Shown: positions 25,425 to 42,127 of the stretch, piece by piece
Layout of the letters: the number at the start of each line of letters is the position of its first letter
Numbering within the stretch: the stretch's first letter is position 1
From: a virus
Direction: 5' to 3' (one strand)
Length of the DNA: 64,000 nucleotides
Virus record (IMG/VR): IMGVR_UViG_3300046779_001123
Location: 9,972 to 73,971 of that record
Notes under the pieces: generated by a model
Told to the model about the DNA's origin: nothing
Database searches by the model: none
The model's input: the letters and a program-made list of their open reading frames with translations, nothing else
Translations under genes and position numbers: made by a program

Positions 25425-25496
25425 GGGGCTATAGCTTAATGGTAAAGCAGTGAACTCATAATTCATTGAGTCTAGGTTCAATTCCTAGTGGCCCTA
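25425..25496 (+). tRNA. tRNA anticodon CAT (Met, fMet or Ile2)
   Basis: Cloverleaf with acceptor GGGGCTA, loop CTCATAA, T-arm CTAGGTTCAATTCCTAG, CCA encoded. Confidence 0.7.
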
Positions 25497-25541
25497 CCAT
25501 TTTCCACGGTTAGAGATAAATACTCTAACCAGGAGAATATT

Positions 25542-25898
25542 ATGAAAGAATATGTTTGTAAAGATTGCGGCATCGAAGGATCTGAGCATTTTTATGCCAA
25601 GGGGTATAGATATCAGTGTAAAAAGTGTTGGAACAAAAGAACTTATCAAGTTGCAAGAGACAAACTAGACAAACTAATTGTAGAACGAGGCGGAAAGTGC
25701 GAGCGTTGCGGCTACGATAAATGCTTTTCAGCATTACAATGGCACCACAACGATCCTACCGAAAAAGAATTTGGTATCAGCGGACGCAGAGGTGCATCAA
25801 TAGATATTCTTCGTAAAGAAGTAGAAAAATGCAGTCTATTATGTGCTAACTGCCATGCAGAAGTCCACGACGAAATATACAAGAATTCATTGCTATGA
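25542..25898 (+). CDS. HNH endonuclease
   Basis: CKDCG...CKKCW zinc ribbon then LQWHHNDP...LLCANCHAEVH; AGGAG RBS. Confidence 0.7.
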   Translation: MKEYVCKDCGIEGSEHFYAKGYRYQCKKCWNKRTYQVARDKLDKLIVERGGKCERCGYDKCFSALQWHHNDPTEKEFGISGRRGASIDILRKEVEKCSLLCANCHAEVHDEIYKNSLL

Positions 25899-26269
25899 AA
25901 GTTACCGAAGATCAGTTTCGTTATGAATGGTTCTCTGGCACAGGCAAAGGAGGACAGCATCGCAACAAGCATCAAAATTGTTGCCGCTGTATCCACGAGC
26001 CCACTGGAATAAGTGCCAACGGAACCAACAGTCGCAGTCGCGAGGACAACAAGGCCGCAGCTTATTCGACTTGTCGTAGTCGTGTGTTGGCACATTTTCA
26101 CAAAGATAAAGATCGATTTCAAGCAGGTCAAGAACGCATTAGAACATATCACGAACCCGATAATCGTGTAGTGGATCACGCCAGCAACTTTGTTGACACA
26201 TACACAAATGTCATTGTCAAAGGCAATGCCGATGATGTAATACAGGCAAGAGCCAAGGCAGTTAGATAA
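25895..26269 (+). CDS. Peptide-chain-release-factor-like (RF-1 domain) GGQ protein, ArfB/PrfH-like peptidyl-tRNA hydrolase candidate
   Basis: FSGTGKGGQHRNK matches the GGQ hydrolase loop of class I RFs/ArfB. Confidence 0.55.
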   Translation: MKVTEDQFRYEWFSGTGKGGQHRNKHQNCCRCIHEPTGISANGTNSRSREDNKAAAYSTCRSRVLAHFHKDKDRFQAGQERIRTYHEPDNRVVDHASNFVDTYTNVIVKGNADDVIQARAKAVR

Positions 26270-26270
26270 T

Positions 26271-26816
26271 ATGAATCGCAGTCCCGAACGCAATACTTTT
26301 CAACTCAAATGCTATCTCGAACGCTGTGAAGCCGATGGCAAAGAACCTCGAGAGGACTATATCAACATATACAAGCAAGCCGACCAGCGTGATCTTGAGA
26401 ATGAAAAAGAAGCTGAGTGGAAGCTAAACAATCTTGAATACGATCTTCGTAGCAACAAGTGGATCTGCGACAAAGCCAAGGCCCGCGAAGCCTACGCACA
26501 AAACATCTACGCTGCCTTGTGCAATCAAGACTGGCAAAAGAACGATGTATGGCCGCTGCTGAAAGGTCAAACTTACTCTTGCTCTTGGCGCTATGCTGGG
26601 GGTATTGTAGCTGACATGGTCGAGTCGGGAGACTACATTGATTGGTATTGCTCGGGTATCAAGGGCGACTTAACGGAAGAGCAGATAGCATCAGCTCTAG
26701 AACAAGGCATGGACATTGTTAAGTATGTAGGCGAAGGGCATGTAACAGATGAAGTTCGTGAGGACTTTTTCAAATTAGGGTGGATTCCGGTAGAAAGCAA
26801 TAATGACAGCAATTAA
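26271..26816 (+). CDS. Hypothetical protein
   Basis: 181-aa ORF. Confidence 0.4.
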   Translation: MNRSPERNTFQLKCYLERCEADGKEPREDYINIYKQADQRDLENEKEAEWKLNNLEYDLRSNKWICDKAKAREAYAQNIYAALCNQDWQKNDVWPLLKGQTYSCSWRYAGGIVADMVESGDYIDWYCSGIKGDLTEEQIASALEQGMDIVKYVGEGHVTDEVREDFFKLGWIPVESNNDSN

Positions 26817-27975: not shown

Positions 27976-27997
27976 ATTATTTTCTTGGCCATTTTTC

Positions 27998-28644: not shown

Positions 28645-28668
28645 AGCCCACTTCGGTGGGCTTTTTGT
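28645..28668 (+). terminator. Rho-independent terminator
   Basis: AGCCCAC-TTCG-GTGGGCT + TTTTTGTT. Confidence 0.8.
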
Positions 28669-28696
28669 TGACTTTTTAAAAGAAGTCATATATAAT
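28668..28696 (+). promoter_or_regulatory. Sigma70-like promoter (TTGACT-17-TATAAT)
   Basis: Directly after the terminator; no long ORF downstream. Confidence 0.55.
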
Positions 28697-28699
28697 TGT

Positions 28700-29191
28700 T
28701 GTATTGCTGTAAAGACCGTAAGGAAAGAAACAGATAAAAATGGATTCAAGAAGAGGCTTCGAAGCCTCCAGGTCCACCATAAAACACATTAGCACAACAT
28801 TTTGACTTCCAGGTCTTTTTGGGTGTTGTGGTCGTTCTAGTGTGTTTTATAGAATACATTTCTTGGCTAGTACTGGAAAGAATACTTAATCGGGGCAACG
28901 AGCCTTAACTCCACCCGAAGAATGGTATCGTAAAGATATATGGACCGTCTATGTATTGTGAAGTGTATTTTATAATGGGCCTGACATGGTGATCGATTGG
29001 GTCAGGAGTATTGAAGTGGACAGCAGGGTAGGCGATGACCCTAAATCAAGCAAACTTAGTAAATGCAAACGCAAATACAAAAGGTGAAGTGGCTATCAAC
29101 GGTCGCGGTGTAAAAATCGCTCGTCGTGCTGCTGTATTGGCTTAATAACCCAAACACCCGGGGTAGGACTTACCTTGTAAACCAAACAACC
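28700..29191 (+). ncRNA. Candidate non-coding/small-peptide transcript bounded by promoter and terminator
   Basis: No ORF over 25 codons between promoter 28668 and terminator 29192; internal hairpin GAGGCTTCGAAGCCTC. Confidence 0.3.
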
Positions 29192-29217
29192 AAGGCTCTT
29201 CGGAGCCTTTTTTATCT
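29192..29217 (+). terminator. Rho-independent terminator
   Basis: AAGGCTC-TTCG-GAGCCTT + TTTTTTAT. Confidence 0.8.
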
Positions 29218-29716: not shown

Positions 29717-30072
29717 TAATACTAAAGTAGGAATTGACAATTAATGACAGTGACAGTAAAATTAGCACCCAATGATAAGAAGGACTGGTTAAAGACGCAT
29801 ACTTTAACTCCTGAGCAAAGACAAAAGCTCATTACTCAGAAGTTAGAACATGCTGTAAAGCAGTTCGAGGCCAATGCCAAGGCGCAAGCCGTAGCATAAG
29901 GTAACAGTGGTTAGGCAACGCGAGCCGTAGAGACACTTTAAAAATCTAGAATGAGGGCGGCCTAGGGGATGAGAAGCACCTTGTGTGGTGTGTGAAAAAA
30001 CCTAGCGTATTAAAGAGCATAGAGCTGACCTGGGTTGAGATACCGCAGACTGTGCTTTTTAATACACACTCT

Positions 30073-30101
30073 TGACAAATATTGTTGAGAGTGTTATAAT
30101 A
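30073..30101 (+). promoter_or_regulatory. Sigma70-like promoter (TTGACA-17-TATAAT) upstream of the tRNA block
   Basis: TTGACAAATATTGTTGAGAGTGTTATAAT. Confidence 0.55.
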
Positions 30102-30196: not shown

Positions 30197-30268
30197 TGCC
30201 GTGTAGCTCAGAGGAAGAGCAAACGCTTGATAAGCGTTAGGTCGACATTTCGAAATTGTCCATGGCAA
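30197..30268 (+). tRNA. tRNA-Ile (GAT)
   Basis: Acceptor TGCCGTG/CATGGCA, loop TTGATAA. Confidence 0.65.
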
Positions 30269-30287
30269 CCATTATAAGTATGTGAAC

Positions 30288-30361
30288 GCGGGTATGATGT
30301 TTAACGGTAGCATGTCAGTCTTCCAAACTGATCGAGAGGAGTTCGAATCTCCCTACCCGCT
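30288..30361 (+). tRNA. tRNA-Gly (TCC)
   Basis: Acceptor GCGGGTA/TACCCGC, loop CTTCCAA, T-arm GGAGTTCGAATCTCC. Confidence 0.75.
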
Positions 30362-30606
30362 CCAAAGGATTATAAATTATGGACATGGATCAAGCGGCAG
30401 TATTTTTAGCCGGGTCAGTTTTAACAATGATGGGTTTCATTGTAATTGTGATTGGTATTGTTGTAGTAAACAATATCATACACAGATACTGGAAACCACT
30501 GGGTTGGTTTAAATCGTGGGGGCTTACCTTTGAGCATCACGATGCAAGATTTGCCGAGCCGCATGAGCTTGACAAAAGCAAAGAACCTAAAATAAAATAA
30601 GTTTTT

Positions 30607-31289: not shown

Positions 31290-31371
31290 GCTCGAGTGGT
31301 GTAATCGGTAGCCACAAGGGACTTAAAATCCCTCGCCGCAAGGCGTGCCGGTTCGATTCCGGCCTCGAGCA
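31290..31371 (+). tRNA. tRNA-Leu (TAA)
   Basis: Acceptor GCTCGAG/CTCGAGC, loop CTTAAAA, long variable arm. Confidence 0.8.
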
Positions 31372-31442
31372 CCAATCTATTGCGACATGTCAGAAATGAC
31401 CCTAGATTCGTTCGGGACTGGAAACAGTGTGTCTCTTTTTAT

Positions 31443-31514
31443 GGAGCTATCGTCTATCGGTTAGGACACCAGGTTTTCATCCTGGTAAGCGGGGTTCGAC
31501 TCCCCGTAGCTCTT
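31443..31514 (+). tRNA. tRNA-Glu (TTC)
   Basis: Acceptor GGAGCTA/TAGCTCT, loop TTTTCAT. Confidence 0.6.
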
Positions 31515-31691
31515 CCAAGTTTATGGAGACAGAAACTTATCACTGGTGCAACCGTTGTGCAATACGGCGGTCAATGTTCTCAGATAAGCGGATAACGTGG
31601 ACGGCATATGGGTAAGTGACTTGGCGCACCGCGAAAGCGTACCGCTGATATCGACCGCCTGTGTGTAGGCGGTCTCCACCATTTAGTTTAT

Positions 31692-31875: not shown

Positions 31876-31947
31876 GGTCTCAAGGTGTTCATGGACGCAC
31901 ACAGCACTGTCACTGCTGAGGAGGGGGATCGTTACCCCCTGGGACCG
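31876..31947 (+). tRNA. tRNA-Asp (GTC)
   Basis: Acceptor GGTCTCA/TGGGACC, stem CAGCA/TGCTG with loop CTGTCAC; non-canonical T-loop ATCGTTA. Confidence 0.65.
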
Positions 31948-32060
31948 CCAGTATTCATTGCAAAGAAGACAACAACGATGCTCTACTCCCGTCCGGAGCA
32001 TTCGGCGAGATTGGGCTTACAATCGTAGCGTAAAAGTCGTAGAACGGGAACTAATTTTAT

Positions 32061-32136
32061 TCCGCAAAATCCGAGCAAGGTGCATGGACCTGACTGTTAA
32101 TCAGTGGTTAGGTGAGTTCGATCCTCACATGCGGAG
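32061..32136 (+). tRNA. tRNA-like gene with GTT anticodon loop (second Asn-like copy, aberrant D/anticodon stems)
   Basis: Acceptor TCCGCAA/ATGCGGA (one mismatch), loop CTGTTAA, good T-arm GTGAGTTCGATCCTCAC. Confidence 0.4.
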
Positions 32137-32145
32137 CCATACAAT

Positions 32146-32234
32146 GGAAGATGATGCAGCGGGGTTGGTCCTGCGACTGGCCTTGAAAACCAGGTCCTGA
32201 GAAATCGGGTGGGGTTCGACTCCTCCGTCTTCCG
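32146..32234 (+). tRNA. tRNA-Ser (TGA)
   Basis: GGAAGAT...CTTCCGCCA ends and loop CTTGAAAA resemble E. coli tRNA-Ser(UGA); long variable arm. Confidence 0.7.
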
Positions 32235-32292
32235 CCAGAATAAGCCTATACCCACTCCTGACGTGACCTGAGTCCCTGGGCTTTCTTTTTTC

Positions 32293-32364
32293 GCCCCGTT
32301 AGTTCTAGTGGTAAAACATCGGTTTTGTAATCCGAGGTCGGGTGTTCGATTCACCCCCGGGGCA
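32293..32364 (+). tRNA. tRNA-Thr (TGT)
   Basis: Acceptor GCCCCGT/CCGGGGC, loop TTTGTAA, T-arm GGGTGTTCGATTCACCC. Confidence 0.55.
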
Positions 32365-32373
32365 CCAAGTTAT

Positions 32374-32448
32374 GCAGTAATGGAAAGGGGTAGGAGGCCT
32401 GTCCTCTGAGTTCTAGACACCCGCAGTGGTTCGAGTCCACTGGCTGCA
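32374..32448 (+). tRNA. tRNA-like gene, isotype undetermined
   Basis: Good T-arm AGTGGTTCGAGTCCACT and acceptor closure; anticodon arm could not be folded canonically. Confidence 0.3.
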
Positions 32449-32611
32449 CCAAATTTTGAGATAGACGTAGGGATTGAGTCCCTTGTGCGCTAGGGCCCTG
32501 TTCTTGTGCCTGACACACCAGTAGCAACACAAGGTAGTTAAACTCTCCCATACGAGACAAGCTGATGAGTCCTTGAGAAAGATAGTCAGTCTCTCAAAAA
32601 CCTATTTTGTC

Positions 32612-32679
32612 CTTTGTGTAGAATAACGGGAGTTCGCCCCGGTGCACAGGAGGTAGTGGTTCGATTCCACTCACAAAGG
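32612..32679 (+). tRNA. tRNA-like gene, aberrant anticodon arm (possible pseudogene)
   Basis: Acceptor CTTTGTG/CACAAAG, D-arm GAAT..GTTC, T-arm AGTGGTTCGATTCCACT; no foldable anticodon stem. Confidence 0.3.
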
Positions 32680-32687: not shown

Positions 32688-32761
32688 ACCACCTTAGCTC
32701 AGCTGAACAGAGCACCAGGCTACGAACTTGGGGGTCGGGAGTTTGAATCTCTCAGGTGGTA
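32688..32761 (+). tRNA. tRNA-Arg (ACG)
   Basis: Acceptor ACCACCT/AGGTGGT, loop CTACGAA. Confidence 0.75.
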
Positions 32762-32774
32762 CCATAAAGATTTT

Positions 32775-32847
32775 GGGCTGTGATTGAGCTGGGGTTCTTG
32801 GCTGCTTTGCAAGCAGTTATCGGTGGGTTCGATTCCCACACGGTCCA
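32775..32847 (+). tRNA. tRNA-Ala (TGC)
   Basis: Acceptor GGGCTGT/ACGGTCC (G-U pairs), loop TTTGCAA. Confidence 0.6.
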
Positions 32848-33078
32848 CCAAGTTTTGTAAGTGTCAGCAAGAGAATGTCACGCTATGCAATATTCTTCGA
32901 AGGTGTTGTATAGTAGAAGGTAGCGGGTTCGATCCCCGGCCTGCGGGAAACTGCGGGCATACAGTTGGAGTATCATCTGGACTTAGTATCCCAAGTGTCA
33001 TGCCGCCCCCTGTCCGGACTTGTATAATCAGGAAAAAAGTTGAGATAAAAGTGGCTCAACTACTTACAAATTCAACAT

Positions 33079-33150
33079 GTCGCATTAGACTTCTGGTGAG
33101 GTCACTACCCTTTCAAGGTGGCCAGAGGGGATCGTAACCCCTATGCGACT
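33079..33150 (+). tRNA. tRNA-Glu (TTC), second copy
   Basis: Acceptor GTCGCAT/ATGCGAC, loop CTTTCAA as in E. coli tRNA-Glu; T-loop ATCGTAA. Confidence 0.6.
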
Positions 33151-33268
33151 CCATTGATAAGCATACTCAAGGCAATAAAAAGCCATAACGCTGGGCGCAG
33201 CTCGACCGGTAAGAGTGGGCAGGTTCAAATCCTGCAGAGTCTGATCAACTCTGAGTGTGTTTTTCAAT

Positions 33269-33366
33269 GGGAGCGTTGCTAATACTGGCCTTAGGGCGAG
33301 ACTTATACCCTCGTAAGCACTGTCTAGATAAGGCAGTTAATGTGGGTTCGATTCCCACCGCTCCTA
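33269..33366 (+). tRNA. Unusually long (98 nt) tRNA-like gene, possible anticodon TAT
   Basis: Acceptor GGGAGCG/CGCTCCT, T-arm GTGGGTTCGATTCCCAC, ~28-nt extra arm ACTGTC-TAGATAA-GGCAGT. Confidence 0.4.
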
Positions 33367-33373
33367 CCAACTT

Positions 33374-33935: not shown

Positions 33936-34011
33936 CCAAGGTACTACTCATAGAATTGTTCGCACTAGTCTATAAGTGGAGGGCAGTAGCGAACACTGCC
34001 CGAGAGATAAT

Positions 34012-34084
34012 GCTGCTTTAGCTGATGTGGTCATAGCACCGGATTGAAAATCCGAGGAACCCTGTTCGATCCGGGGAGGCAGCA
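34012..34084 (+). tRNA. tRNA-Phe (GAA)
   Basis: Loop TTGAAAA, acceptor GCTGCTT/AGGCAGC. Confidence 0.7.
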
Positions 34085-34107
34085 CCACCATTTACAAGGA
34101 GACGATC

Positions 34108-34256: not shown

Positions 34257-34328
34257 CCCTTTGAGATGTTAAGGCAGCATGCCGGACTCTTAATCCGTGA
34301 CGTGTGGGTTCGACTCCCACCAGAGGGA
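34257..34328 (+). tRNA. tRNA-Lys (CTT)
   Basis: Acceptor CCCTTTG/CAGAGGG, loop CTCTTAA. Confidence 0.55.
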
Positions 34329-34334
34329 CCATAT

Positions 34335-34405
34335 GGGGGTGAAACTTTAAGGTGAAGTAACCGGCTTTTAACCGGTAAAATTCGGATCGTTCCCGAACAC
34401 CCCTA
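34335..34405 (+). tRNA. tRNA-Lys (TTT)
   Basis: Stem ACCGG/CCGGT, loop CTTTTAA; non-canonical T-loop ATCGTTC. Confidence 0.7.
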
Positions 34406-34407
34406 CC

Positions 34408-35100
34408 ATATAAAAACACACTCTACCCTACCCTGGCTGGAACGGCTGTGCGGGGATAGGAGAACAGACCCGTTTGAGTGTGTTTCTATATGGTAACAAG
34501 GTTCGAAACTTGTCCTTCCGGTGGCGGAAATTTACCTGTAAGGGGAAAAACCGGTGCCATATAGAAATACATTATTGCCTGAAAAGATGAAAATTCTAGA
34601 CAAGTAATCATATGTTGTCTGCAGATGCGTTAGATATCGGCGTAATCACAGCAGAGGTATAGTGTGTTTCTATATGGTAAGTGTTATCTGCAGGTAACAC
34701 CCATGCTGGAGAGTAATTAACTCCAGGAGCTCGTAGTGATGGAACTGGAAGACATTCCTCCGTTATAGGAGGCGGGAGTTCCGCAAGGCCCCCATGCAGG
34801 TTCGAACCCTGCCTACAATGAGCTTGCATATAAAAGCATTCTTGGCATAAGTCAAAGCAGAAGAAGAAACCTAGTGGATGCATACGCGAAAGTTTCAGTG
34901 GTTCAACCCCCTTCTAGGCCTGCCGTCGAGAGTGCCTCTATATGTAATTAGAGATTGTTAATAAAGCGTAGAGCTCGATTGATGTCGGTGAAGTAACGCA
35001 TAGTTAGTTCGCAGTCATAGATATCGTAGACCACAATACAGCATACGCCATCATCACTTAGACTTAATTGAAAGTCTAATCCAGCTGGGGTTTGACTGTA
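34408..35100 (+). ncRNA. ~700-nt tRNA-free non-coding stretch with direct/inverted repeats (structured RNA candidate)
   Basis: AGTGTGTTTCTATATGGTAA at 34470 and 34661; 11-bp inverted partner CCATATAGAAA at 34557; several T-arm-like hairpins without acceptor closure. Confidence 0.3.
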
Positions 35101-35124: not shown

Positions 35125-35198
35125 GGTGGGTATCGCCAAGTGGTTAAGGCCTCGGGTTGTGATTCCGATATGCGTGAGTTCGATCCTCACTATCCACC
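35125..35198 (+). tRNA. tRNA-His (GTG) with encoded G-1
   Basis: G-1 + GTGGGTA...TATCCAC-C-CCA (discriminator C), loop TTGTGAT. Confidence 0.8.
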
Positions 35199-35205
35199 CC
35201 AACAT

Positions 35206-35277
35206 GGATGTATAGCATAATGGTAGTGCGCCTCCTTCATACGGAGTCCGGTGGTAGTTCGAATCTACTTACATCCA
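35206..35277 (+). tRNA. tRNA anticodon CAT (Met, fMet or Ile2), copy 2
   Basis: Acceptor GGATGTA/TACATCC, loop TTCATAC. Confidence 0.65.
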
Positions 35278-35324
35278 CCAAATAATTGCCGACAGCAAGT
35301 GTTGTCGACTATATAATAACGTAT

Positions 35325-35396
35325 TCCCCGGTAGCTCAGCGGTAGAGCAGGAGACTGTTAATCTCTTGGTCGCAAGTTCGATCCTTGCCTGGGGAG
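35325..35396 (+). tRNA. tRNA-Asn (GTT)
   Basis: Stem GGAGA/TCTCT, loop CTGTTAA, T-arm GCAAGTTCGATCCTTGC. Confidence 0.8.
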
Positions 35397-35404
35397 CCAA
35401 ATTT

Positions 35405-35491
35405 CGAGAGTGGGCCGGATGGTAAGGCAGCGGATTGCTAATCCGTAGAGTGTAGTAATACGCTCACAGGGTTCGACTCCCTGACTCTCGG
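35405..35491 (+). tRNA. tRNA-Ser (GCT)
   Basis: Acceptor CGAGAGT/ACTCTCG, loop TTGCTAA, long variable arm. Confidence 0.8.
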
Positions 35492-35501
35492 CCAGTATAT
35501 T

Positions 35502-35573
35502 GCGGGTATGGTGCTAGTGGTAACACACGACCTTGCCAAGGTTGAGTTGAGGGTTCGATCCCCTCTACCCGCT
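35502..35573 (+). tRNA. tRNA-Gly (GCC)
   Basis: Acceptor GCGGGTA/TACCCGC, loop TTGCCAA. Confidence 0.75.
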
Positions 35574-35581
35574 CCAAAATT

Positions 35582-36220
35582 ATGTATAAAAGATTGTTAG
35601 CGTTCGGTGATAGTTTTACATTTGGGCACGAGTTAGACGATTGTTTCAAAGACCAACCGAGTAATCAAACGTATTCGGCATTACTAGGACAATGGTTAGA
35701 TATTCCATACCAATGCCACGCTGTTGGGTCTAACGCCAATCAAAGCATTACTAGAAATATACTCAATGCTGATATTTTGCAAAACGATCTTGTGATTATA
35801 ATGTGGACATACGAAGAGCGCCAAGACTTTTTGTTTGATGGCAAACGTGGATGGTCGAGTGTGTCCCCAACTGATTTTGATCAATTTGCAACTTGTTTTT
35901 ATAAACATATTGATCCTACATTACAGTATTTTCAATATCTATCACATAAAGAAATATTTTTAGTCCAAAAGTATTTGGATAATATTGGAGTAAATCACAT
36001 TCATTGTTGTGTTACTTCGTCTTTATTAGAAAGTATCAACTACAGAAATTCCCCAATAAGTAAACAGATTAACACATCTAATTGGATTGCGATGCCGGGA
36101 CCTACAGGGTTCTATGATTGGGCAAAAAGTCAATCATTGATTGTAAGACAGGGCGGGCATGCAAACTCGTATGCACACCAACAATTATTTGAGTTAATAA
36201 AACAACACATGCCTGGATAG
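35582..36220 (+). CDS. SGNH/GDSL-hydrolase-like protein (paralog 3) inside the tRNA island
   Basis: N-terminal LLAFGDSFTFG; overlaps tRNA-Val at its 3' end. Confidence 0.5.
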   Translation: MYKRLLAFGDSFTFGHELDDCFKDQPSNQTYSALLGQWLDIPYQCHAVGSNANQSITRNILNADILQNDLVIIMWTYEERQDFLFDGKRGWSSVSPTDFDQFATCFYKHIDPTLQYFQYLSHKEIFLVQKYLDNIGVNHIHCCVTSSLLESINYRNSPISKQINTSNWIAMPGPTGFYDWAKSQSLIVRQGGHANSYAHQQLFELIKQHMPG

Positions 36221-36282
36221 CTCAGGGGTAGAGCGTCTCCTTTACACGGAGAGGGTCCGCGGTTCGAAACCGTGTCCAGGTA
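36211..36282 (+). tRNA. tRNA-Val (TAC)
   Basis: Stem TCTCC/GGAGA, loop TTTACAC. Confidence 0.8.
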
Positions 36283-36291
36283 CCAGACAAT

Positions 36292-36363
36292 CGGCTGTTA
36301 GTTCAATGGATAGAATTCCATGCTTCGAACTTGGAGATGTGGGTTCGATTCCTGCACAGCCGG
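36292..36363 (+). tRNA. tRNA-Arg (TCG)
   Basis: Loop CTTCGAA; D- and T-arms paralogous to tRNA-Arg(TCT) at 33374. Confidence 0.55.
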
Positions 36364-36383
36364 CCACTAGCAAGGAGGAAGAG

Positions 36384-36569
36384 ATGAAACCCGTGACTTT
36401 TGAAAATAAATTAAATCGCGAACGTGTCATCTGTGATGATACACGACTATCCCAGTGGGTAGATGGGGTAGAATACCTTGCAGTGCATCGAGAGAATTCA
36501 CCTAGAATTTTTTTAATGCGGCGAGATAGTTTAGAAAAAGTAAAAACAAAAGAAAAAATGGCTCCGTAG
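36384..36569 (+). CDS. Small hypothetical protein (61 aa)
   Basis: AAGGAGG SD 6 nt upstream of ATG. Confidence 0.35.
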   Translation: MKPVTFENKLNRERVICDDTRLSQWVDGVEYLAVHRENSPRIFLMRRDSLEKVKTKEKMAP

Positions 36570-36633
36570 TTCAGTCTGGCAGAACGTTGGTCTCCAAAAC
36601 CAAATGTCGGTGGTTCAAATCCATCCGGGGTCG
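36560..36633 (+). tRNA. tRNA-Trp (CCA)
   Basis: Stem TTGGT/ACCAA, loop CTCCAAA. Confidence 0.75.
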
Positions 36634-36649
36634 CCATACACAACAGTAA

Positions 36650-37222: not shown

Positions 37223-37714
37223 ATGACAAAATTTAACATCGAAGAAATCCGTGACTTCATTGCGGCACAAAGTCCAGAAACCAAAATTTACATTGGTTGC
37301 GACTCTGAACGCACAAAGATCAACGGCGTATGGCATGCTGTATATACAGCCGCCATTGTAGTTCACATCAATGGCAACAATGGATGCAGACTATTCGGTG
37401 AAGTGACTCGTGAACGTGACTATGATCAAAAGGCCAATCGCCCTAGCACACGTTTAATGACCGAAGTTTACAAAGTTTCTGCTTTGTATTTGAAATTAGC
37501 AGATGTGTTAGAAGGTCGTGATGTTGAAGTTCACTTAGACGTCAACCCCGACGAACATTATGGTTCAAGCTGTGTTGTAAGCCAAGCTATCGGTTATATC
37601 CGTGGCGTTTGCAATGTTGAACCAATGGTTAAGCCGCAAGCGTTTGCCGCAAGTTATGCAGCCGACAGGTTCCGTAGCTTAGGCACAGCTCGAGGCCATG
37701 CCCAGGTGGTGTAA
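37223..37714 (+). CDS. Hypothetical protein
   Basis: GAGGAAAAA RBS; 3' end reads into tRNA-Leu. Confidence 0.4.
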   Translation: MTKFNIEEIRDFIAAQSPETKIYIGCDSERTKINGVWHAVYTAAIVVHINGNNGCRLFGEVTRERDYDQKANRPSTRLMTEVYKVSALYLKLADVLEGRDVEVHLDVNPDEHYGSSCVVSQAIGYIRGVCNVEPMVKPQAFAASYAADRFRSLGTARGHAQVV

Positions 37715-37778
37715 TTGGTAGCCACGTCAGACTCAAAATCTGATGCGCAAGCGTGTCGGTTCGAGTCCGACCCTGGGC
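37700..37778 (+). tRNA. tRNA-Leu (CAA)
   Basis: Stem TCAGA/TCTGA, loop CTCAAAA, long variable arm. Confidence 0.85.
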
Positions 37779-37812
37779 ACCACAATTTCGGTAAAACTGA
37801 TTAAAAAAGTTG

Positions 37813-37844: not shown

Positions 37845-38335
37845 TACTTAGGGCAGTTTATTGTCCTGTAGCGTATGGTTCGCCCAGCGTTGCGAAGAAT
37901 AACTGTGGTGACACAGCCAAAGGAGGTAAGCCTACGCAACTCCGCCAGCAATGGTTCATGTAAACAAGCCTGCTCAGGTCCGTGAGGATCCGATCACTGA
38001 TAAGACCGGTGGTTGTAACAATGACGCTGGAAGTATAGGAAAGAGCTTTTGCTTACAAGCCCGCAAGGGGAACTTGAGTAGAAGAAAAGTAACAGGTGGT
38101 GCTGACTTCTATGCAAAACCAGTCCAGTTAATTGGTATGAGAAAGGGTAGTGTATTTGTCCGAGGGGTTGCACCCAAGGGCTTGTATGCAGTTTTAGTGG
38201 CAAGTGGAGGTACGCGAAAGCCGAGACCCGACACTGATCGCAAAAGACGACTGAGTAGTCCGCAAGACAAAAGGTACATGGTGAGTTGTATTATGCAATC
38301 CAAAAGATTGTGTAGCAACTGAGGCAGCTCATCGT
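37845..38335 (+). ncRNA. ~490-nt GC-rich structured ncRNA candidate
   Basis: Multiple GNRA-tetraloop hairpins (CCCGCAAGGGG, GCGAAAGC, CGCAAAAG); higher GC than neighbours; overlapping ORF 37951..38322 has R/K/G-rich protein-atypical composition and no RBS. Confidence 0.4.
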
Positions 38336-38339
38336 AGTA

Positions 38340-38411
38340 GGTTAAGTAGCACAATGGTAGTGCAGTTCCCTTTTAAGGAATAGGCTGTTGGTTCAAATCC
38401 AACCTTATACA
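38340..38411 (+). tRNA. tRNA-like gene, loop CTTTTAA (Lys-TTT-like), imperfect acceptor; possible pseudogene
   Basis: D-arm GCAC..GTGC, stem GTTCC/GGAAT, T-arm GTTGGTTCAAATCCAAC; acceptor pairs 5/7; no CCA. Confidence 0.3.
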
Positions 38412-38415
38412 AAAA

Positions 38416-38835
38416 TGCAAAGACTGCCTCGGTCATACGTGAAAAGCATCTAATGCTTGACACGCAAGTGAATCAAGTCTGACGTAGCTCGCAAGGTGAA
38501 ATCAGTTTGTGTTAGAAGTTTCGTAGCATCTTAGCGGATGTGAATGGCTCTAAAAGGTCAACGGGAAATAAGACACAGAGTAGCGTGTGACGACAAGTCT
38601 ACTGCCTGACTTTAAAAACGGCGATGCTGATAGCAGACAGTGATACCGCAAGGGTCGCTGTGGATGTCGGAAGAAGTAGTGCTCGCAAGGTGCTATATAA
38701 TGTCCGAGGTGCTATTGGCTTAAGGTGTAATCTCAACCTTAGGCACTATTATAAAACACATTAGTTGAGCTTGATGTTTTGACTGATCAACATAGCTACA
38801 TAGGGTAGATTAGTGTGTTTCATAATAGAAAGATT
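38416..38835 (+). ncRNA. ~420-nt non-coding structured region with repeated GCTCGCAAGGTG motif
   Basis: GTAGCTCGCAAGGTG at 38477 and GTGCTCGCAAGGTG at 38679; CCGCAAGGG hairpin; no ORF. Confidence 0.35.
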
Positions 38836-38837: not shown

Positions 38838-38912
38838 GTCTCGGTACCAGAGCGACTCAATGGCGTGGATTGCAAATCCATCGATTCGTAGGTTTGAATC
38901 CTACCCGGGACT
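38838..38912 (+). tRNA. tRNA-Cys (GCA)
   Basis: Loop TTGCAAA, T-arm GTAGGTTTGAATCCTAC. Confidence 0.75.
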
Positions 38913-39207
38913 CCAATTAGTTTTGCTAGTTTTCACAAAACTAGACTGTGATGTATGGAGATGAGGAGTTGCACAAGTAGTATCCGACTTGAAATTGGAA
39001 TACTGCATAATTAACGTGATCCAGTGTCCTGAGATGAATTGGCGAAAGCCGTGTTTGTTGATGCTCAGAAAAATTGGTATCCTCTGCTTGTTGAATGTTG
39101 CTTTGGCGCTATACTGTAATGGTTATGCCAATGTTAATTGCAAATTGTTCAGCGGCTTACTTGCCATACACTCACTGTTTTATATTCAAATAGAAAGGAA
39201 CTCGAAT

Positions 39208-39774: not shown

Positions 39775-39781
39775 ATAGTTG

Positions 39782-39855
39782 TGCGGAAGAGTGAAACGGT
39801 TTCCACGGAAGTCTCATAAGCTTCAGACATCAGGTTCGACTCCTGCTTTCCGCAA
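39782..39855 (+). tRNA. tRNA anticodon CAT (Met, fMet or Ile2), copy 3
   Basis: Acceptor TGCGGAA/TTCCGCA, loop CTCATAA. Confidence 0.6.
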
Positions 39856-39906
39856 CCAGGCCTCGCCTTTGCTAACGGCGTATAATAGGATAAATTGTTA
39901 GCACTT

Positions 39907-39987
39907 GCCCCGGTGGTGTAATGGTAGCCACGCTGGTCTTAGAAGCCAGTGGAGAGATCCGTGTCGGTTCGAGTCCGACCTGGGGCA
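39907..39987 (+). tRNA. tRNA-Leu (TAG)
   Basis: Loop CTTAGAA, long variable arm. Confidence 0.85.
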
Positions 39988-39996
39988 CCAAAATTT

Positions 39997-40069
39997 GCGT
40001 GATTAACTCAGTTGGTAGAGTGCCAATTTGACTCGTTGGATGTCGGCAGTTCGAATCTGTCATCACGCA
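39997..40069 (+). tRNA. tRNA-Val (GAC), position 37 is U
   Basis: Acceptor GCGTGAT/ATCACGC, stem CCAAT/GTTGG, loop TTGACTC. Confidence 0.55.
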
Positions 40070-40087
40070 CCAAGCCATATATAAGCT

Positions 40088-41986
40088 GTGCAGAAAATTA
40101 TCAGCTTTGTCCAAGTAAACTTTCAACAAGGACCTCGAGAACTCAACGCTTACTATCTACCCTACACCGCAGGTGTGGTGTTAGCCTACGCATTAGAGCA
40201 AAATCCAGACTGGAAACTCGGCGAACTTATATGGCGTAGAGATCCAATTGAAGAAACAGCACAACGTCTAAAGCACAGTGATGCAGTTGGGTTCAGCACG
40301 TATGTGTGGAATCATCAATACAACTATGCTCTAGCTAAACGAGTAAAAGAGCTTAATCCTAACTGCTTGATTGTAACCGGGGGTCCCGAGATTGCAATTA
40401 CAGATCCAGACTTGTTTATAAAAAACCCCTGGATGGATGCAGCAGTTAAGATGGAGGGCGAGCTTGTGTTTTCACAACTACTAAAAGAATATGGGAATAA
40501 CTTATTATCTATCTCAGGCTTAGTAGTTAACGTGGATGGACGGGCAGTAGACACAGGCAATAGTGATCGAATTAATACCTTAGACCAACTTCCAAGTCCG
40601 TATCTAACCGGACTGTTTGACGACCTATTGAGTGCCTACCCAGACATAACCTGGAACGCCACACTTGAAACAAATCGCGGTTGCCCATACCAATGCACGT
40701 TTTGCGATTGGGGTAGCCTTACTTACAATAAAGTAAAGCTATTCAACTTAGATCGTGTATTCCGTGAGTTAGAATGGATTGGCGAGCATTGCGGTTTCGT
40801 TACTATTACAGACGCAAACTTCGGAATGTTTGTTGAACGCGACAACTCAATTGTTTCAAAGTTGATCGAAGTCCAGTTACGTTGGAACAATCTTACTAGT
40901 TTCTCAATGACCTGGGCCAAGAATCAAAAGAACGAAGTTGTTGATATTGTGCGTAGACTTGTCGACGAAAGTCCCACAGCTAGTCAAGGACTTACTGTTA
41001 GTGTGCAAAGCATGAACGAAGGTGTGCTGGATATTATCAAGCGCCGCAACTTGGACCAACACAAGATTGAAGAAATATTTTCATTGTGTGATCGTTATAA
41101 CATTCCCGTGCATACCGAACTTATTTTAGGCTTGCCCGGTGATACAGAAGCCAGCTGGAAGGAAAATTTTTGGCGATTATTTAGAGCAGGCAATCACACA
41201 GGCATCAGCATACTACATGCACAGTTGTTAGAAAATGCTGAAATGAATATCAGCCAACGCAAATTCTACAAGCTAGACGCTGTTCCAATCTATGATTATA
41301 TGAGTGGCAGTTATAGCAATGGCGAAGTCGAAGAAAGCATGGAAGTAGTTGTCGGCACTAGAGATATACCGCGCAACAAAATGCTGGACTTGATGATATG
41401 GAACAGTTTCATACAAACATTTCATATTAATGGTTTGACAACTTACATTGCAAGATACATGGCCTCACAAGGTGTAGACTATAAAGAATTTTACGACAAA
41501 TTATGGTATCGATTGCAACGTGATCCATGGTGGCAACAGCAGTTTGCAACTACTCGAAAACTATACGAAGAGTGGATTAATAATGGCAGAGTCAATGTTC
41601 AAGTGGGCGGAATAAGTGTGCCTGGGTGGAATCTACACAACAGAATGACTTTGGTACTACATGCTGAACACAAAATCAATCAAACATACGATTTGATATA
41701 TCAATTCATTTGTGCAGAGTTTGATATCAACTGCGCAGATCAATTGACCGTATTTCAAAGATTTACTGTGATTGATCATGCTACATTATCAAAGTTTCCC
41801 CGGCGTCAACAATTTGATTGGGATTTTTGGGGATACTTGGTTCACGGTTCAGAAATAAATCAAGCAGTGTGCTATGAGTTTGACACTGCCGAAGACAAAA
41901 CAATGAGTGCCAAAATGTTTTTAGAAAATTTTTATTTCGGTCGTAAAAGAAATTTTGGTAAAACAAATATTACCCGGGTGGTGTAA
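40088..41986 (+). CDS. B12-binding radical SAM (class B) enzyme
   Basis: N-terminal B12-binding-like Rossmann region (LIVTGGPE), TNRGCPYQCTFCDW CxxxCxxC cluster; 632 aa; located between tRNA genes. Confidence 0.65.
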   Translation: MQKIISFVQVNFQQGPRELNAYYLPYTAGVVLAYALEQNPDWKLGELIWRRDPIEETAQRLKHSDAVGFSTYVWNHQYNYALAKRVKELNPNCLIVTGGPEIAITDPDLFIKNPWMDAAVKMEGELVFSQLLKEYGNNLLSISGLVVNVDGRAVDTGNSDRINTLDQLPSPYLTGLFDDLLSAYPDITWNATLETNRGCPYQCTFCDWGSLTYNKVKLFNLDRVFRELEWIGEHCGFVTITDANFGMFVERDNSIVSKLIEVQLRWNNLTSFSMTWAKNQKNEVVDIVRRLVDESPTASQGLTVSVQSMNEGVLDIIKRRNLDQHKIEEIFSLCDRYNIPVHTELILGLPGDTEASWKENFWRLFRAGNHTGISILHAQLLENAEMNISQRKFYKLDAVPIYDYMSGSYSNGEVEESMEVVVGTRDIPRNKMLDLMIWNSFIQTFHINGLTTYIARYMASQGVDYKEFYDKLWYRLQRDPWWQQQFATTRKLYEEWINNGRVNVQVGGISVPGWNLHNRMTLVLHAEHKINQTYDLIYQFICAEFDINCADQLTVFQRFTVIDHATLSKFPRRQQFDWDFWGYLVHGSEINQAVCYEFDTAEDKTMSAKMFLENFYFGRKRNFGKTNITRVV

Positions 41987-42051
41987 TGGTAGCCACGCAG
42001 CGTTGAGGTCGCTGTGCCAAAAGCGTGTGAGTTCGAATCTCATCCCGGGTA
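41972..42051 (+). tRNA. tRNA-Leu (GAG)
   Basis: Stem CAGCG/CGCTG, loop TTGAGGT, long variable arm. Confidence 0.85.
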
Positions 42052-42061
42052 CCAAATTTAT

Positions 42062-42127
42062 TGACTCTTCTGGAGATGTGCTGGATTCCAACCCTGGCAC
42101 TTGGAGGTTCGATTCCTTCCGGGTCAG
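42062..42127 (+). tRNA. Short (66 nt) tRNA-like gene lacking a proper D-arm
   Basis: Acceptor TGACTCT/CGGGTCA + G + CCA, T-arm GGAGGTTCGATTCCTTC. Confidence 0.3.

Follow-up and report, generated by a model that had tools for sequence, protein, structure and literature searches.

A 17-kb tRNA array as a probable translation-support module of an uncultivated large tailed phage

The tRNA array

The window, meaning the whole 64-kb stretch of DNA that was analysed, carries a genuine 17-kb tRNA array on its + strand (25425-42130), far beyond what chance would produce. The array holds 36 supported tRNA genes, a number defined as the union of the ARAGORN and Rfam tRNA model calls together with two conserved low scorers; between them they carry 31 anticodons, and each of the 20 amino acids is represented. 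These two independent methods agree: ARAGORN at default settings returned 33 genes, all on the + strand from 25425 to 42054, and the Rfam model reached its gathering score 32 times. CCA is encoded in 35 of the 36 genes, that is, in every free-standing one. An earlier note on this DNA had located the island and its coverage of all 20 amino acids correctly, but its count of about 39 genes is obtained only when ARAGORN is relaxed to -ps90, and none of the three surplus calls is matched even in L002, the closest relative. The canonical genes are given below; each was called by both ARAGORN and Rfam unless otherwise indicated.

25425..25499 (+) tRNA(CAU) no. 1; G1.U72, A73, CCA; Rfam 72.4 bits
30112..30190 (+) tRNA-Gln(UUG)
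30197..30271 (+) tRNA-Ile(GAU)
30288..30364 (+) tRNA-Gly(UCC); 30.3 bits
30607..30684 (+) tRNA-Pro(UGG)
31290..31374 (+) tRNA-Leu(UAA)
31443..31517 (+) tRNA-Glu(UUC) no. 1; canonical T-loop
31692..31776 (+) tRNA-Tyr(GUA)
32293..32367 (+) tRNA-Thr(UGU)
32688..32764 (+) tRNA-Arg(ACG)
32775..32850 (+) tRNA-Ala(UGC); 31 bits
33374..33448 (+) tRNA-Arg(UCU)
33865..33938 (+) tRNA-Thr(GGU)
34012..34087 (+) tRNA-Phe(GAA)
34257..34331 (+) tRNA-Lys(CUU)
35125..35201 (+) tRNA-His(GUG)
35206..35280 (+) tRNA(CAU) no. 2
35325..35399 (+) tRNA-Asn(GUU) no. 1
35405..35494 (+) tRNA-Ser(GCU)
35502..35576 (+) tRNA-Gly(GCC)
36211..36285 (+) tRNA-Val(UAC)
36292..36366 (+) tRNA-Arg(UCG)
36560..36636 (+) tRNA-Trp(CCA)
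37700..37782 (+) tRNA-Leu(CAA)
38838..38915 (+) tRNA-Cys(GCA)
39782..39858 (+) tRNA(CAU) no. 3; U1-A72, A73, CCA, single T-stem mismatch; Rfam 40 bits, ARAGORN -ps90
39907..39990 (+) tRNA-Leu(UAG)
39997..40072 (+) tRNA-Val(GAC)
41972..42054 (+) tRNA-Leu(GAG), the last supported tRNA

As had been read before, three genes bear a CAT anticodon (25425, 35206 and 39782), Leu has four genes (TAA, CAA, TAG and GAG), Arg three, Ser, Gly, Thr and Val two each, and the His gene encodes its G-1 (at 35125, opposite C73). Lys is represented by three genes rather than the two claimed, one of them lying inside a GOLLD RNA. The anticodon set shows almost no redundancy and no gaps, and the gene order is unlike that of L002. 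Arg(UCG) and Arg(UCU) are 87% identical, and an inverted repeat (31233-31252 with 31375-31387) encloses tRNA-Leu(UAA). Blocks of tRNA genes of this sort are already known, and the island is a further example of that kind.

A scan for sigma-70-like sites found 67 against 39 +/- 6 expected, and the best of them immediately precede RNA genes on the + strand.

25387..25415 (+) promoter, TTGACT-17-TATAAT, 11/12 matches, directly upstream of the first tRNA
28668..28696 (+) promoter of the tmRNA, 11/12 matches
29192..29209 (+) intrinsic-terminator-like hairpin 3' of the tmRNA (sequence scan)
30072..30100 (+) perfect consensus promoter, 12/12 matches with extended TG, upstream of the main array
30569-30598 (+) promoter of tRNA-Pro(UGG), from the site scan
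37813-37841 (+) promoter of the GOLLD RNA, from the site scan

Non-canonical tRNAs and tRNA-like elements

The aberrant members of the array had been taken for curiosities or perhaps pseudogenes, but the majority represent conserved, covarying classes of non-canonical tRNA.

31876..31950 (+) tRNA-Asp(GUC), swapped A54:U58 pair, T-loop ATCGTTA; ARAGORN
32061..32139 (+) tRNA-Asn(GUU) no. 2; ARAGORN -ps90, conserved in relatives
32146..32237 (+) tRNA-Ser(UGA) of 8/4 type; Sec-like 36.5 bits, ARAGORN -ps90
33079..33153 (+) tRNA-Glu(UUC) no. 2, A54:U58, T-loop ATCGTAA; ARAGORN
33269..33369 (+) tRNA(UAU) with long variable arm, CCA included; Rfam 40 bits, conservation
34335..34408 (+) tRNA-Lys(UUU), A54:U58, T-loop ATCGTTC; ARAGORN and Rfam

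The unusual T-loops of the Asp, second Glu and Lys(UUU) genes are confirmed, and the swapped 54:58 pair recurs across many arrays in tRNAs for Asp, Glu, Ile, Asn and Lys; the Asp gene alone has homologs of at least 80% identity at 17 loci. The two Glu genes, previously described as near-duplicates, share only 64% identity. The second Asn gene was correctly placed, but its supposedly broken stems are not decay: its mismatches at 7:66 and 27:43 are conserved and the remaining stem pairs covary, in a molecule with an 11-nt D-loop, G73 and CCA. The Ser(UGA) gene, with homologs at 23 loci, has an 8-bp acceptor, a 4-bp T stem, a long variable arm, G73 and CCA, and in all of these but the CCA, as in its phage tRNA cluster setting, it resembles the (8/4) tRNA-Ser of phages and allo-tRNAs (Mukai et al. 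2017, PMC5389517), a class that is already known.

The 98-nt gene reported to have an extra arm of about 28 nt and possibly a TAT anticodon is present at 33269-33366, followed by CCA, and both features are confirmed. It has a 7/5 architecture, G1.U72 and A73, and its 28-nt variable region forms a 6-bp stem with the loop UAGAUAA. More than 120 viral contigs contain the same long-arm tRNA(UAU), as do bacterial tRNA arrays, and it is conserved with compensatory changes across distant contigs; the variable arm measures 21-33 nt and its 7-nt loop is always YAGAUNR. No published description of a long-arm tRNA(UAU) with this loop was found. It is probably a widespread isoleucine tRNA, as its D arm matches that of the short cellular tRNA-Ile(UAU) of CPR bacteria and, in homolog alignments, columns containing ATA show the same alignment to Ile, Val and Leu as ATT/ATC columns. 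The nematode nev-tRNA-Ile(UAU) likewise combines a UAU anticodon with a long variable arm outside the Leu, Ser and Tyr classes, but tRNAs of the nev class originated from tRNA-Leu and accept Leu (Hamashima et al. 2012, PMC3333845), whereas here the D arm is of the CPR tRNA-Ile(UAU) kind and AUA behaves as Ile. An allo-tRNA identity was considered and rejected in view of the 7/5 architecture, A73, the class-I-like D arm and the fixed YAGAUNR loop.

Other tRNA-like elements are of a different nature.

32373..32450 (+) doubtful remnant, 'Arg cct'; T arm good, D and anticodon arms degenerate; ARAGORN -ps90 only
32612..32679 (+) doubtful remnant; 6-nt anticodon loop, without CCA; ARAGORN -ps90 only
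32851..33078 (+) conserved non-coding spacer, with a T-arm fragment and a GAAA-capped hairpin whose stem is compensated
34657..34846 (+) unclassified structured RNA of ~190 nt with a tRNA-like core; conserved structure
42062..42130 (+) doubtful D-armless remnant, T arm followed by CGGGUCA-G-CCA; ARAGORN -ps90

The first two remnants have no homolog in 80 related loci. The third, noted before as a 66-nt D-armless gene, does exist but is doubtful as a tRNA gene, being absent from L002. The T-arm-like fragments at 32886-32960 and 33186-33262 are also present, and neither they nor the three remnants have a conserved counterpart of tRNA length in relatives. The presence of several tRNA-like remnants shows that the array also decays.

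ARAGORN's 'tRNA-???' at 34730-34820 was rejected as a decoding tRNA; it is the core of the conserved 190-nt RNA, which has no match in Rfam. In this RNA the outer stem measures 18 bp, two hairpins lie on the 5' side, and the acceptor helix is extended. The core combines D and T arms with a GNRA-capped variable arm and with an anticodon-like arm whose 6-nt loop is invariably GUUAUA; CCA is absent. With bacterial Y RNA (YrlA) and tRNA-like modules it shares the end-to-end long terminal stem and the internal D/T-arm tRNA-like domain, but it differs from YrlA in retaining a full 5-bp anticodon-like stem and the GNRA-capped variable arm, and no Ro/Rsr gene was seen alongside it.

Other RNAs and proteins of the island

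The earlier note had missed a permuted tmRNA, a GGQ protein and a GOLLD RNA within the island.

25488..25898 (+) HNH endonuclease ORF, 136 aa; phrog_2255, 7e-30
25895..26269 (+) GGQ-domain protein, 124 aa; PF00472, 1e-14, motif GKGGQHRNK
28705..29148 (+) permuted (two-piece) tmRNA; RF04321, 66.6 bits (gathering score 47)
33491..33874 (+) HNH endonuclease ORF, 127 aa; domain and PHROG matches
37223..37714 (+) RNase H-like protein; PF04308/DUF458, phrog_11311
about 37850..38739 (+) GOLLD RNA, ~850 nt; RF02032, 210.6 bits against 150
38340..38411 (+) tRNA-Lys(UUU) in the GOLLD linker, no encoded CCA; ARAGORN and Rfam, 63.9 bits
40088..41986 (+) B12-binding radical SAM enzyme ORF, 632 aa, between tRNAs; domain match

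The tmRNA shares with other two-piece RF04321 members the permuted order, an acceptor piece ending in CCA (stem GGGCCUG/CAGGUCC) with G3.U70, and a tag that starts with Ala and has a hydrophobic, Ala-rich tail. The tag, ANANTKGEVAINGRGVKIARRAAVLA, is coded at 29065-29142, followed by TAATAA, and ends in AAVLA; similar tags occur in relatives. It differs from other RF04321 tmRNAs in the unusual length of its tag (26 residues) and in being phage-borne and adjoining a GGQ-only release-factor fragment. That fragment resembles domain 3 of RF1/RF2 and lacks the codon-reading domain.

The RF02032 match spans the full model; the Rfam-matched part occupies 38278-38739 and is preceded by a conserved 5' domain at ~37894-38277. 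As in described GOLLD RNAs, the setting is a phage tRNA island, and a tRNA likewise occupies the linker of some members (Kretsch et al. 2025, PMC12286853). The present one differs in its new sequence and in its embedded Lys(UUU) without CCA; the GOLLD of L002 holds an Asn tRNA at that place.

Phage setting and relatives

The window consists of dense one-strand ORFs with PHROG matches, and its MoxR ATPase is 52% identical to that of the jumbo phage PA5oct. Huge metagenomic phages also carry tRNA arrays. By means of the PF04308 protein, a marker that accompanies such arrays in many phages, 80 IMG/VR loci sharing the module were collected, most with 20-35 same-strand tRNAs and many with a permuted tmRNA. 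The module is also common to the cultured Stenotrophomonas phage DLP6 (KU682439.2; PMC5349666), whose tRNA genes likewise number in the dozens, share one strand and are mixed with HNH genes and small ORFs. Its array is headed by a permuted tmRNA, and DLP6 has in addition a 92-nt tRNA-Ile(TAT) and a PF04308 homolog 62% identical to that of the window. Neither GOLLD nor the 190-nt RNA was found in the DLP6 stretch examined, and no nucleotide similarity of the window to cultured phages extends beyond single tRNAs.

Codon coverage and proposed role

The 31 anticodons could in principle read all 61 sense codons by wobble. Anticodons and codon usage match: each preferred A-ending codon (GAA 74%, CAA 79%, AAA 60%, GCA 41%, ACA 40%, and ATA 19% of Ile) has a Watson-Crick cognate U34 tRNA in the island, with GC3 at 0.40, and 57% of codons have a Watson-Crick cognate. 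The proposed full self-encoded decoding set holds for elongation. None of the three CAU tRNAs has the bacterial initiator marks (C1xA72 mismatch, three anticodon-stem G:C pairs), so the set is not demonstrably complete; tRNA(CAU) no. 1 appears to be of elongator Met or Ile2 type.

The region is probably a module with which an uncultivated large tailed phage of jumbo type supports its translation, supplying an elongator tRNA pool. From the features described above, we infer that the array is expressed, processed and charged, and that it brings a selective benefit. Several near-consensus sigma-70-type promoters would drive the one-strand array and, since every free-standing tRNA encodes its CCA, release from polycistronic precursors would be possible without CCA addition. 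During infection the array would most likely supply a complete elongator pool tuned to the A- and T-ending codons of the phage, AUA, AGA, UUA and CUA among them, and phage translation could then proceed independently of a host pool that may be mismatched, degraded or hit by defence nucleases. The two-piece, alanine-type tmRNA and the GGQ protein, a putative codon-independent peptidyl-tRNA hydrolase, would form a ribosome-rescue pair and extend this self-sufficiency; the module also includes the GOLLD RNA with its tethered tRNA-Lys and one or more additional structured RNAs that have a tRNA-like core.

Alternative explanations

The complete set exceeds what simple codon compensation needs, which counts against this reading and suits a different main selective role, namely counter-defence, whereby the phage tRNAs would stand in for those cleaved by host anticodon nucleases or other tRNA-targeting defences. 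Recent papers on some phages lean towards counter-defence or towards the replacing of host tRNAs that have been degraded (PMC10264068, PMC11464382, PMC11555353). The A54:U58 loops, the 8/4 Ser, the odd Asn, the long-arm Ile and the duplicated Lys, Glu and Asn would then be poor nuclease substrates, and both the very different bodies of the duplicate Glu, Asn and Lys isoacceptors and the recurrence of the swapped pair fit this proposal. However, the three Lys anticodon loops are canonical (CUUUUAA, CUCUUAA) by direct, unscored reading, and none of the island's genes was identified as belonging to defence or anti-defence. We consider counter-defence a possible main role, if a less probable one than supply of an elongator pool. 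A reading of much of the island as decaying pseudogenes and hitch-hiking mobile DNA spread by homing HNH endonucleases, with little function outside a handful of tRNAs, would account for the two HNH ORFs, the unconserved remnants and T-arm fragments and the rearranged order relative to L002, yet this is improbable given intact cloverleaves with encoded CCA in 35 genes, a gapless, almost non-redundant anticodon set, and aberrant members conserved in distant contigs with compensatory changes.

The supply of elongator tRNAs by a phage also presupposes that the DNA comes from a lytic phage genome and is not a tRNA array from a bacterial chromosome or integrative element, such as Mycobacterium and Pyrinomonadaceae possess. 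The long-arm tRNA(UAU) does occur in bacterial arrays, and mycobacterial ones also contain GOLLD and HNH genes (PMC6582537), but such an origin is very improbable for 64 kb of dense, nearly all one-strand, phage-family genes with no ribosomal or housekeeping bacterial genes, whose relatives, viral contigs in IMG/VR, reach 343 kb in length and whose marker proteins have phages as nearest cultured relatives. Least credible of all is an alternative genetic code through stop- or sense-codon reassignment, which for the window is already largely refuted. Relatives and DLP6 have tRNA(CUA) amber suppressors, TAG terminates only 3 of the 61 window ORFs, and the combination of a class-II-like tRNA body with an Ile anticodon is reminiscent of the nev-tRNAs, which carry Leu (PMC3333845); against this, ARAGORN found no suppressor tRNA in the window at default or -ps90 settings, code 11 gives long ORFs in tight packing, and ATA columns align like those of ATT/ATC.

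Extent of the tRNA array

By using ARAGORN at its default setting, 33 tRNA genes were called in the window, all on the + strand and spanning 25425-42054, while Rfam model RF00005 matched 32 regions at its gathering score or better (at least 29 bits). Rfam alone matched 39783-39854 and the 98-nt gene at 33269-33366, and ARAGORN alone called Asp 31876, Glu 33079 and a "tRNA-???" at 34730. Relaxing ARAGORN to -ps95 gained a third CAU tRNA, the second Asn gene (Asn-2, 32061-32139) and Ser(UGA) (32150-32233), the last two, an aberrant Asn and an 8/4 Ser, being called at this setting for the first time. At -ps90 the total reached 39, a figure equal to the approximately 39 genes claimed by the earlier note. 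The newly gained calls (32373, 32612, 42040), however, have poor arms. The candidates at 32373, 32612 and 42062 had no counterpart in any of 80 related loci, the closest relative (L002) included, and did not combine the intact acceptor stem with discriminator, the encoded CCA and the conservation in relatives expected of functional genes.

The supported set comprises 36 tRNA genes with 31 different anticodons, which do cover all 20 amino acids (20/20), as had been proposed. CCA is encoded in 35 of the 36, the sole exception being a tRNA-Lys within a GOLLD RNA, and for most of them a counterpart at 80% identity or more occurs in other loci. The bacterial initiator signature was absent from all three CAU tRNAs (25425, 35206, 39782). 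Judged from these sequence comparisons, the island is genuine, looks functional and is typical of a known type of phage module. The first interpretation was right in part. Most members described as aberrant belong to conserved classes and are not products of decay.

Decay is the better reading for a few pieces. Both T-arm fragments reported earlier are present. That at 32886-32960 lies inside a 228-nt non-coding spacer (32851-33078), nearly identical to 3324-3551 of L002, in which a T-arm-like hairpin is followed by a GAAA-capped hairpin whose stem sequence is wholly replaced in L002 with the pairing intact; these hairpins may belong to a further small RNA. The other fragment (33186-33262) and the D-armless candidate of 66 nt (42062-42130), once counted as a tRNA gene, are unconserved in L002 and most plausibly remnants.

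A widespread phage module

ORFs fill the 64-kb window densely, and 79 of the 98 lie on the + strand. Among their products are a 5'-3' exonuclease, HNH endonucleases, enzymes that modify sugars and a MoxR ATPase, the last with 52% identity to its counterpart in jumbo phage PA5oct and 37-46% to those in Atu_ph07 and Phosso. When the island was searched for near-identical stretches among 50,697 phage records, the matches were single tRNAs alone. By using the RNase H-like protein PF04308/phrog_11311 (37223-37714) as a probe, 164 relatives were found in IMG/VR, and 80 loci were kept for further analysis. Most of these have 20-35 tRNAs, always on the same strand as the probe gene, and a permuted tmRNA was recognised by ARAGORN in 20 of them. 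The same protein occurs in the tRNA-rich cultured phages DLP6, BUCT-ZZ01, RcXuper and DSS3P8 and in KVP40/nt-1-like vibriophages. Stenotrophomonas phage DLP6 resembles the window in having the PF04308 gene in the middle of its array, which is headed by its permuted tmRNA. Because PF04308 proteins and tRNA arrays recur together across IMG/VR loci and cultured phages, the island is, on this comparative evidence, one instance of a widespread phage module.

The PF04308 protein had no match in a PDB sequence search, and Pfam and PHROG gave none for the ORFs at 26271-26816, 26803-27975, 28070-28621 and 38989-39774. The sole sizeable minus-strand ORF of the island (36650-37366, -, 238 aa) has a weak match to the methyltransferase domain PF13489, at 25.4 bits against a cut-off of 27 bits. 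At 40088-45505, a B12-binding radical SAM enzyme placed between tRNAs opens an auxiliary metabolic cluster abutting the array, followed by malonyl-CoA-decarboxylase-like, AhpC, class II aldolase, CMD and amidotransferase-like domain ORFs.

Regarding codon use, the phage ORFs have a GC3 of 0.40, with a preference for codons that end in A. Of the Ile codons 19% are ATA, of the Arg codons 19% are AGA, and among the Leu codons UUA reaches 23% and CUA 17%; cognate tRNAs for all four are present in the island. A Watson-Crick cognate is available for 57% of all codons, and once wobble is allowed for, the 31 anticodons could serve all sense codons, provided that Pro, Ala and the UCN Ser box are served by four-way U34 reading. 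Amber-suppressor tRNAs (CUA) occur in DLP6 (17672-17746) and in 8 of the 80 IMG/VR loci; the window has none, and TAG accounts for 3 of its 61 stop codons. Together with the tmRNA and a GGQ protein, the tRNA set fits a module that would keep phage translation independent of the host tRNA pool. Codon mismatch, host tRNA loss and defence nucleases have each been supported as drivers for some phages (PMC10264068, PMC11464382, PMC11555353). Large phage tRNA arrays are already known, and this island is mainly one more well-dissected example, useful in that one transcription-oriented block unites a full set of elongator tRNAs with a tmRNA, a GGQ hydrolase and a GOLLD RNA to which a tRNA is tethered. 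Its greater value lies in the supposedly aberrant tRNAs as conserved classes, chiefly the long-arm tRNA(UAU).

The long-arm tRNA(UAU) class

The 98-nt gene with an extra arm of about 28 nt and a possible TAT anticodon proved to be as first described. This tRNA (33269-33369) has an Rfam match, a regular 7-bp acceptor stem with G1.U72, A73, CCA, an ordinary T arm and the anticodon loop CUUAUAC; the variable region, of 28 nt, folds into a 6-bp stem capped by the loop UAGAUAA. In comparison with the L002 homolog, the anticodon stem carries two double compensatory changes, and both the loop and the extra arm are identical. A tRNA(UAU) was called by ARAGORN in 26 of the 80 loci, in every case 91-95 nt long. 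Across 19 distinct sequences, to which the annotated 92-nt tRNA-Ile-TAT of DLP6 belongs, the variable region is a 3-6-bp stem closing a 7-nt loop YAGAUNR, and this stem takes nine different sequences with pairing kept in all 19.

A blastn search with the DLP6 gene matched DLP6 itself alone. As BLAST lacks the sensitivity that this family calls for, IMG/VR was scanned for an exact pattern instead, and the D arm and UAU loop of one subfamily matched at least 120 contigs. Among the matches listed, 107 distinct tRNAs were parsed, of which 104 have a variable region of 21-33 nt with AGAU and three have the short class-I form; A73 is found in 104 and an encoded CCA in 101. The arm loops among these listed matches are CAGAUAA (59), CAGAUUA (26) and, for the remainder, UAGAU variants, and their variable stems give 17 distinct entries, one of them empty. 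In an RNAalifold run on 23 diverse members, the acceptor and T stems covary, as do the two pairs that close the loop of the extra arm, and G1.U72 is usual in the class.

When bacterial genomes were scanned with the same pattern, the long form turned up in tRNA arrays on the chromosomes of Pyrinomonadaceae and Streptomyces tamarix, and in a few other genomes. Such arrays (for example L231 and L234 of Pyrinomonadaceae and L228 of S. tamarix) hold 18-24 tRNAs in 8 kb, and their long-arm tRNAs have no encoded CCA. The D arm, AGUUUAAYGGUAAAAC with a 4-bp stem, is class-I-like and is shared with CPR bacteria, where it belongs to a normal native 71-nt tRNA-Ile(UAU) with no hairpin. Taken together, these features point to a large class of mobile AUA-decoding tRNAs, in which a class-I tRNA-Ile(UAU) body would have been joined to a variable-region hairpin. 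No published description of a long-arm tRNA-Ile(UAU) in phages or tRNA arrays was found, which is not proof of absence. The class is abundant, spans the boundary between phages and bacteria, and is present in a culturable phage of S. maltophilia, DLP6, which makes the decoding of AUA as Ile by a mobile tRNA in lysidine-using hosts directly testable.

Identity and possible role of the hairpin

Reassignment of AUA as a sense codon was rejected by a homolog-column test on the PF04308 protein: in alignments from 67 phages, columns with ATA hold Ile in 40%, Val in 21% and Leu in 11% of the other sequences, and the ATT/ATC columns are much alike, so that AUA appears to be read as Ile or a close equivalent. 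An allo-tRNA(UAU), a related but different case (PMC5389517, PMC7609411), would have 8/4 or 9/3 geometry and G73 or U73; every member examined is 7/5, and A73 stands in 104 of 107 among the matches listed. An 8/4 folding of the long-arm tRNA itself fails in that position 8 is unable to pair and the T stems are 5 bp. The nev-tRNA-Ile(UAU) of nematodes is Leu-charged and again related but different (PMC3333845), combining a Leu-like body with Leu charging. The tRNA described here has a class-I-like D arm, and the AUA columns look like Ile.

As for what the conserved hairpin does, an internal pseudoknot of its AGAU loop with the D stem (GUUU), the T loop or the anticodon loop was rejected, as a reading of the family sequences gave no complement common to all subfamilies. 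The arm loop YAGAUNR is one base off the anticodon loop of tRNA-Ile(GAU), CUGAUAA, and the determinants of IleRS include position 34 and t6A37 (PMC9976931). From this likeness and these determinants comes the suggestion, only a hypothesis, that the arm helps a mobile UAU tRNA to gain acceptance in lysidine-using hosts; against it, the position of the loop equivalent to 37 is variable and the arm is short. More broadly, the hairpin might be a portable identity or protection element, a tentative idea to which we give rather low odds of being correct. As an anticodon-arm mimic, it might lead IleRS enzymes adapted to G34 or lysidine-34 to accept a horizontally transferred UAU tRNA; another option is that it directs or blocks a modification at position 34.

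Other conserved departures from the canonical tRNA

The Ser(UGA) gene at 32146-32237 has an 8-bp acceptor stem (GGAAGATG/CGTCTTCC), a 4-bp T stem (GGGG/CTCC), G73, CCA, the anticodon TGA and a long variable arm, in agreement with all the characters of (8/4) tRNA-Ser (Mukai 2017). It is conserved across 23 loci, and tRNAs of this type were previously described in phage tRNA clusters (PMC5389517).

The odd T-loops noted earlier in Asp (31876-31950), Glu-2, the second Glu gene (33079-33153), and Lys(UUU) (34335-34408) are genuine, each with A first and U fifth, that is, A/U at positions 54/58. Among 1126 unique array tRNAs these positions are U/A in 1055, A/U in 48, A/A in 8 and U/U in none, with the swap concentrated in Asp, Glu, Ile(GAU), Asn and Lys tRNAs. 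On these counts, the reverse-Hoogsteen 54:58 pair is exchanged from U:A to A:U as one covarying unit, which is relevant to T-loop architecture.

The stems of Asn-2 had been called broken. The mismatches are there, purine-A at 7:66 and C-U at 27:43, but both are retained in nine sequences, in which the remaining pairs of the two stems covary. The two Glu(TTC) genes, taken earlier for near-duplicates, are just 64% identical; the true near-duplicates are Arg(UCU) 33374-33448 and Arg(UCG) 36292-36366 (87% identity), which resemble anticodon-shift paralogs inside the array. The G-1 encoded in tRNA-His, also pointed out before, does oppose C73. The four Leu tRNAs of the window are normal class II (83-85 nt); in DLP6 (8565-8641, 15975-16051, 17239-17315) and the Pyrinomonadaceae arrays L231 and L234, short tRNA-Leu of 74-78 nt occur, without the long variable arm.

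Structured RNAs within the array

Two RNAs that reach Rfam gathering scores, a tmRNA and a GOLLD RNA, had been overlooked in the earlier note. The permuted tmRNA (28705-29113) matches RF04321 with 66.6 bits against 47; ARAGORN made no tmRNA call of its own on the window. As read from the alignment, its acceptor stem is GGGCCUG/CAGGUCC with G3.U70, followed by ACCA, and the tag of 26 codons encodes ANANTKGEVAINGRGVKIARRAAVLA before two stops (TAATAA). A promoter (28668-28696) and a terminator (29192-29209) of its own are predicted. A 124-aa protein just upstream, likewise overlooked before, carries an RF-1 domain (PF00472) with the GGQ motif and no codon-reading domain, and may work like a codon-independent hydrolase. 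Proteins of the ArfB/ICT1 type add to the GGQ domain a long basic tail at the C-terminus, with which they sense an empty mRNA channel; this identity was rejected, the protein having no extended basic tail and an RF1/RF2-like C-terminal continuation. In a related array (L012), the tmRNA at 2158-2602 matches both the permuted model and, with 133.8 bits, the Betaproteobacteria tmRNA model, a hint that Betaproteobacteria are among the hosts of this phage group.

The GOLLD RNA (RF02032, 38278-38739) scores 210.6 bits against a gathering score of 150 over the full model (1-416), and its linker holds the tRNA-Lys(UUU) that has no CCA (38340-38411). Homologs were found in three related loci (L002, L029, L037), and blastn of the GOLLD sequence against phage records gave no match whatever. 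About 400 nt 5' of the Rfam match are conserved at 76-86% DNA identity across four related GOLLD-bearing loci. A 123-aa ORF at 37951-38322 was rejected as a gene, with 73% protein conservation against up to 86% for the DNA and frame breaks in L029; the region it overlaps, 37894-38322, is probably the GOLLD 5' domain. Because the DNA is better conserved here than the protein and the frame is broken, the start of GOLLD is probably close to the promoter at 37813-37841, which gives an RNA of about 850 nt. The location of GOLLD near tRNA islands, at times with tRNAs in the linker, was already reported (PMC12286853), and the window agrees. A homo-oligomeric nanocage was established by cryo-EM for another member (PMC12286853); the CCA-less tRNA in the GOLLD RNA of the window bears on the current idea of GOLLD cages displaying or enclosing tRNAs.

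The call "tRNA-???" (34730-34820) has conserved flanks, and RNAalifold sets it within a larger fold, which has these members:

Window 34657-34846 (+): structured RNA of about 190 nt
L002 4669-4859: member
L001 429-618: member
L037 1232-1396: member
L041 136-357: member

The outermost elements are an 18-bp stem and two 5' hairpins. Inside, an "acceptor" of 4 bp, an AAU bulge and 6 bp leads to a D arm, a 5-bp stem whose 6-nt loop, GUUAUA, is invariant, a GNRA-capped variable arm and a T arm, without CCA. A covariance model built on three sequences gained L037 (111 bits), with the same flanks and a different, class-I-like core, and L041 (44 bits). In the five-member alignment 94.9% of cells are paired, in comparison with 37-50% in slid controls, and 30 of 62 pairs show double (compensatory) changes, figures somewhat inflated by the fitting of this alignment to the model. 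The more distant members were reached through the covariance model alone; an exact-pattern scan of IMG/VR with the variable-arm and T-arm segment returned the two known contigs and none further.

Y RNA and YrlA are recognised by an Rfam model match and an associated Ro (Rsr) protein. This identity is not supported, because Rfam at E<=10 gave as its best result a sub-threshold tRNA match of 19.4 bits; moreover, no TROVE protein was found among the ORFs scanned. With no Rfam match above that score, the element was handled as a structured RNA outside known classes, built around a tRNA-like core, and it adds a further tRNA-like non-coding RNA. The model also gave a weak full-length match around the tRNA-Leu(UAA) of the window, itself flanked by a similar inverted repeat, and the 190-nt RNA was probably derived from a tRNA-Leu gene.

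A short motif, AGTGTGTTT, occurs 6 times against 1.1 expected (28839, 33254, 34414(-), 34477, 34661, 38812), at sites that include the tmRNA spacer, 15 nt 5' of the tRNA(UAU), the 5' stem of the 190-nt RNA and the gap between GOLLD and tRNA-Cys, and it may be a processing or transcription signal. An exact 20-nt repeat joins 34477-34496 and 34661-34680.
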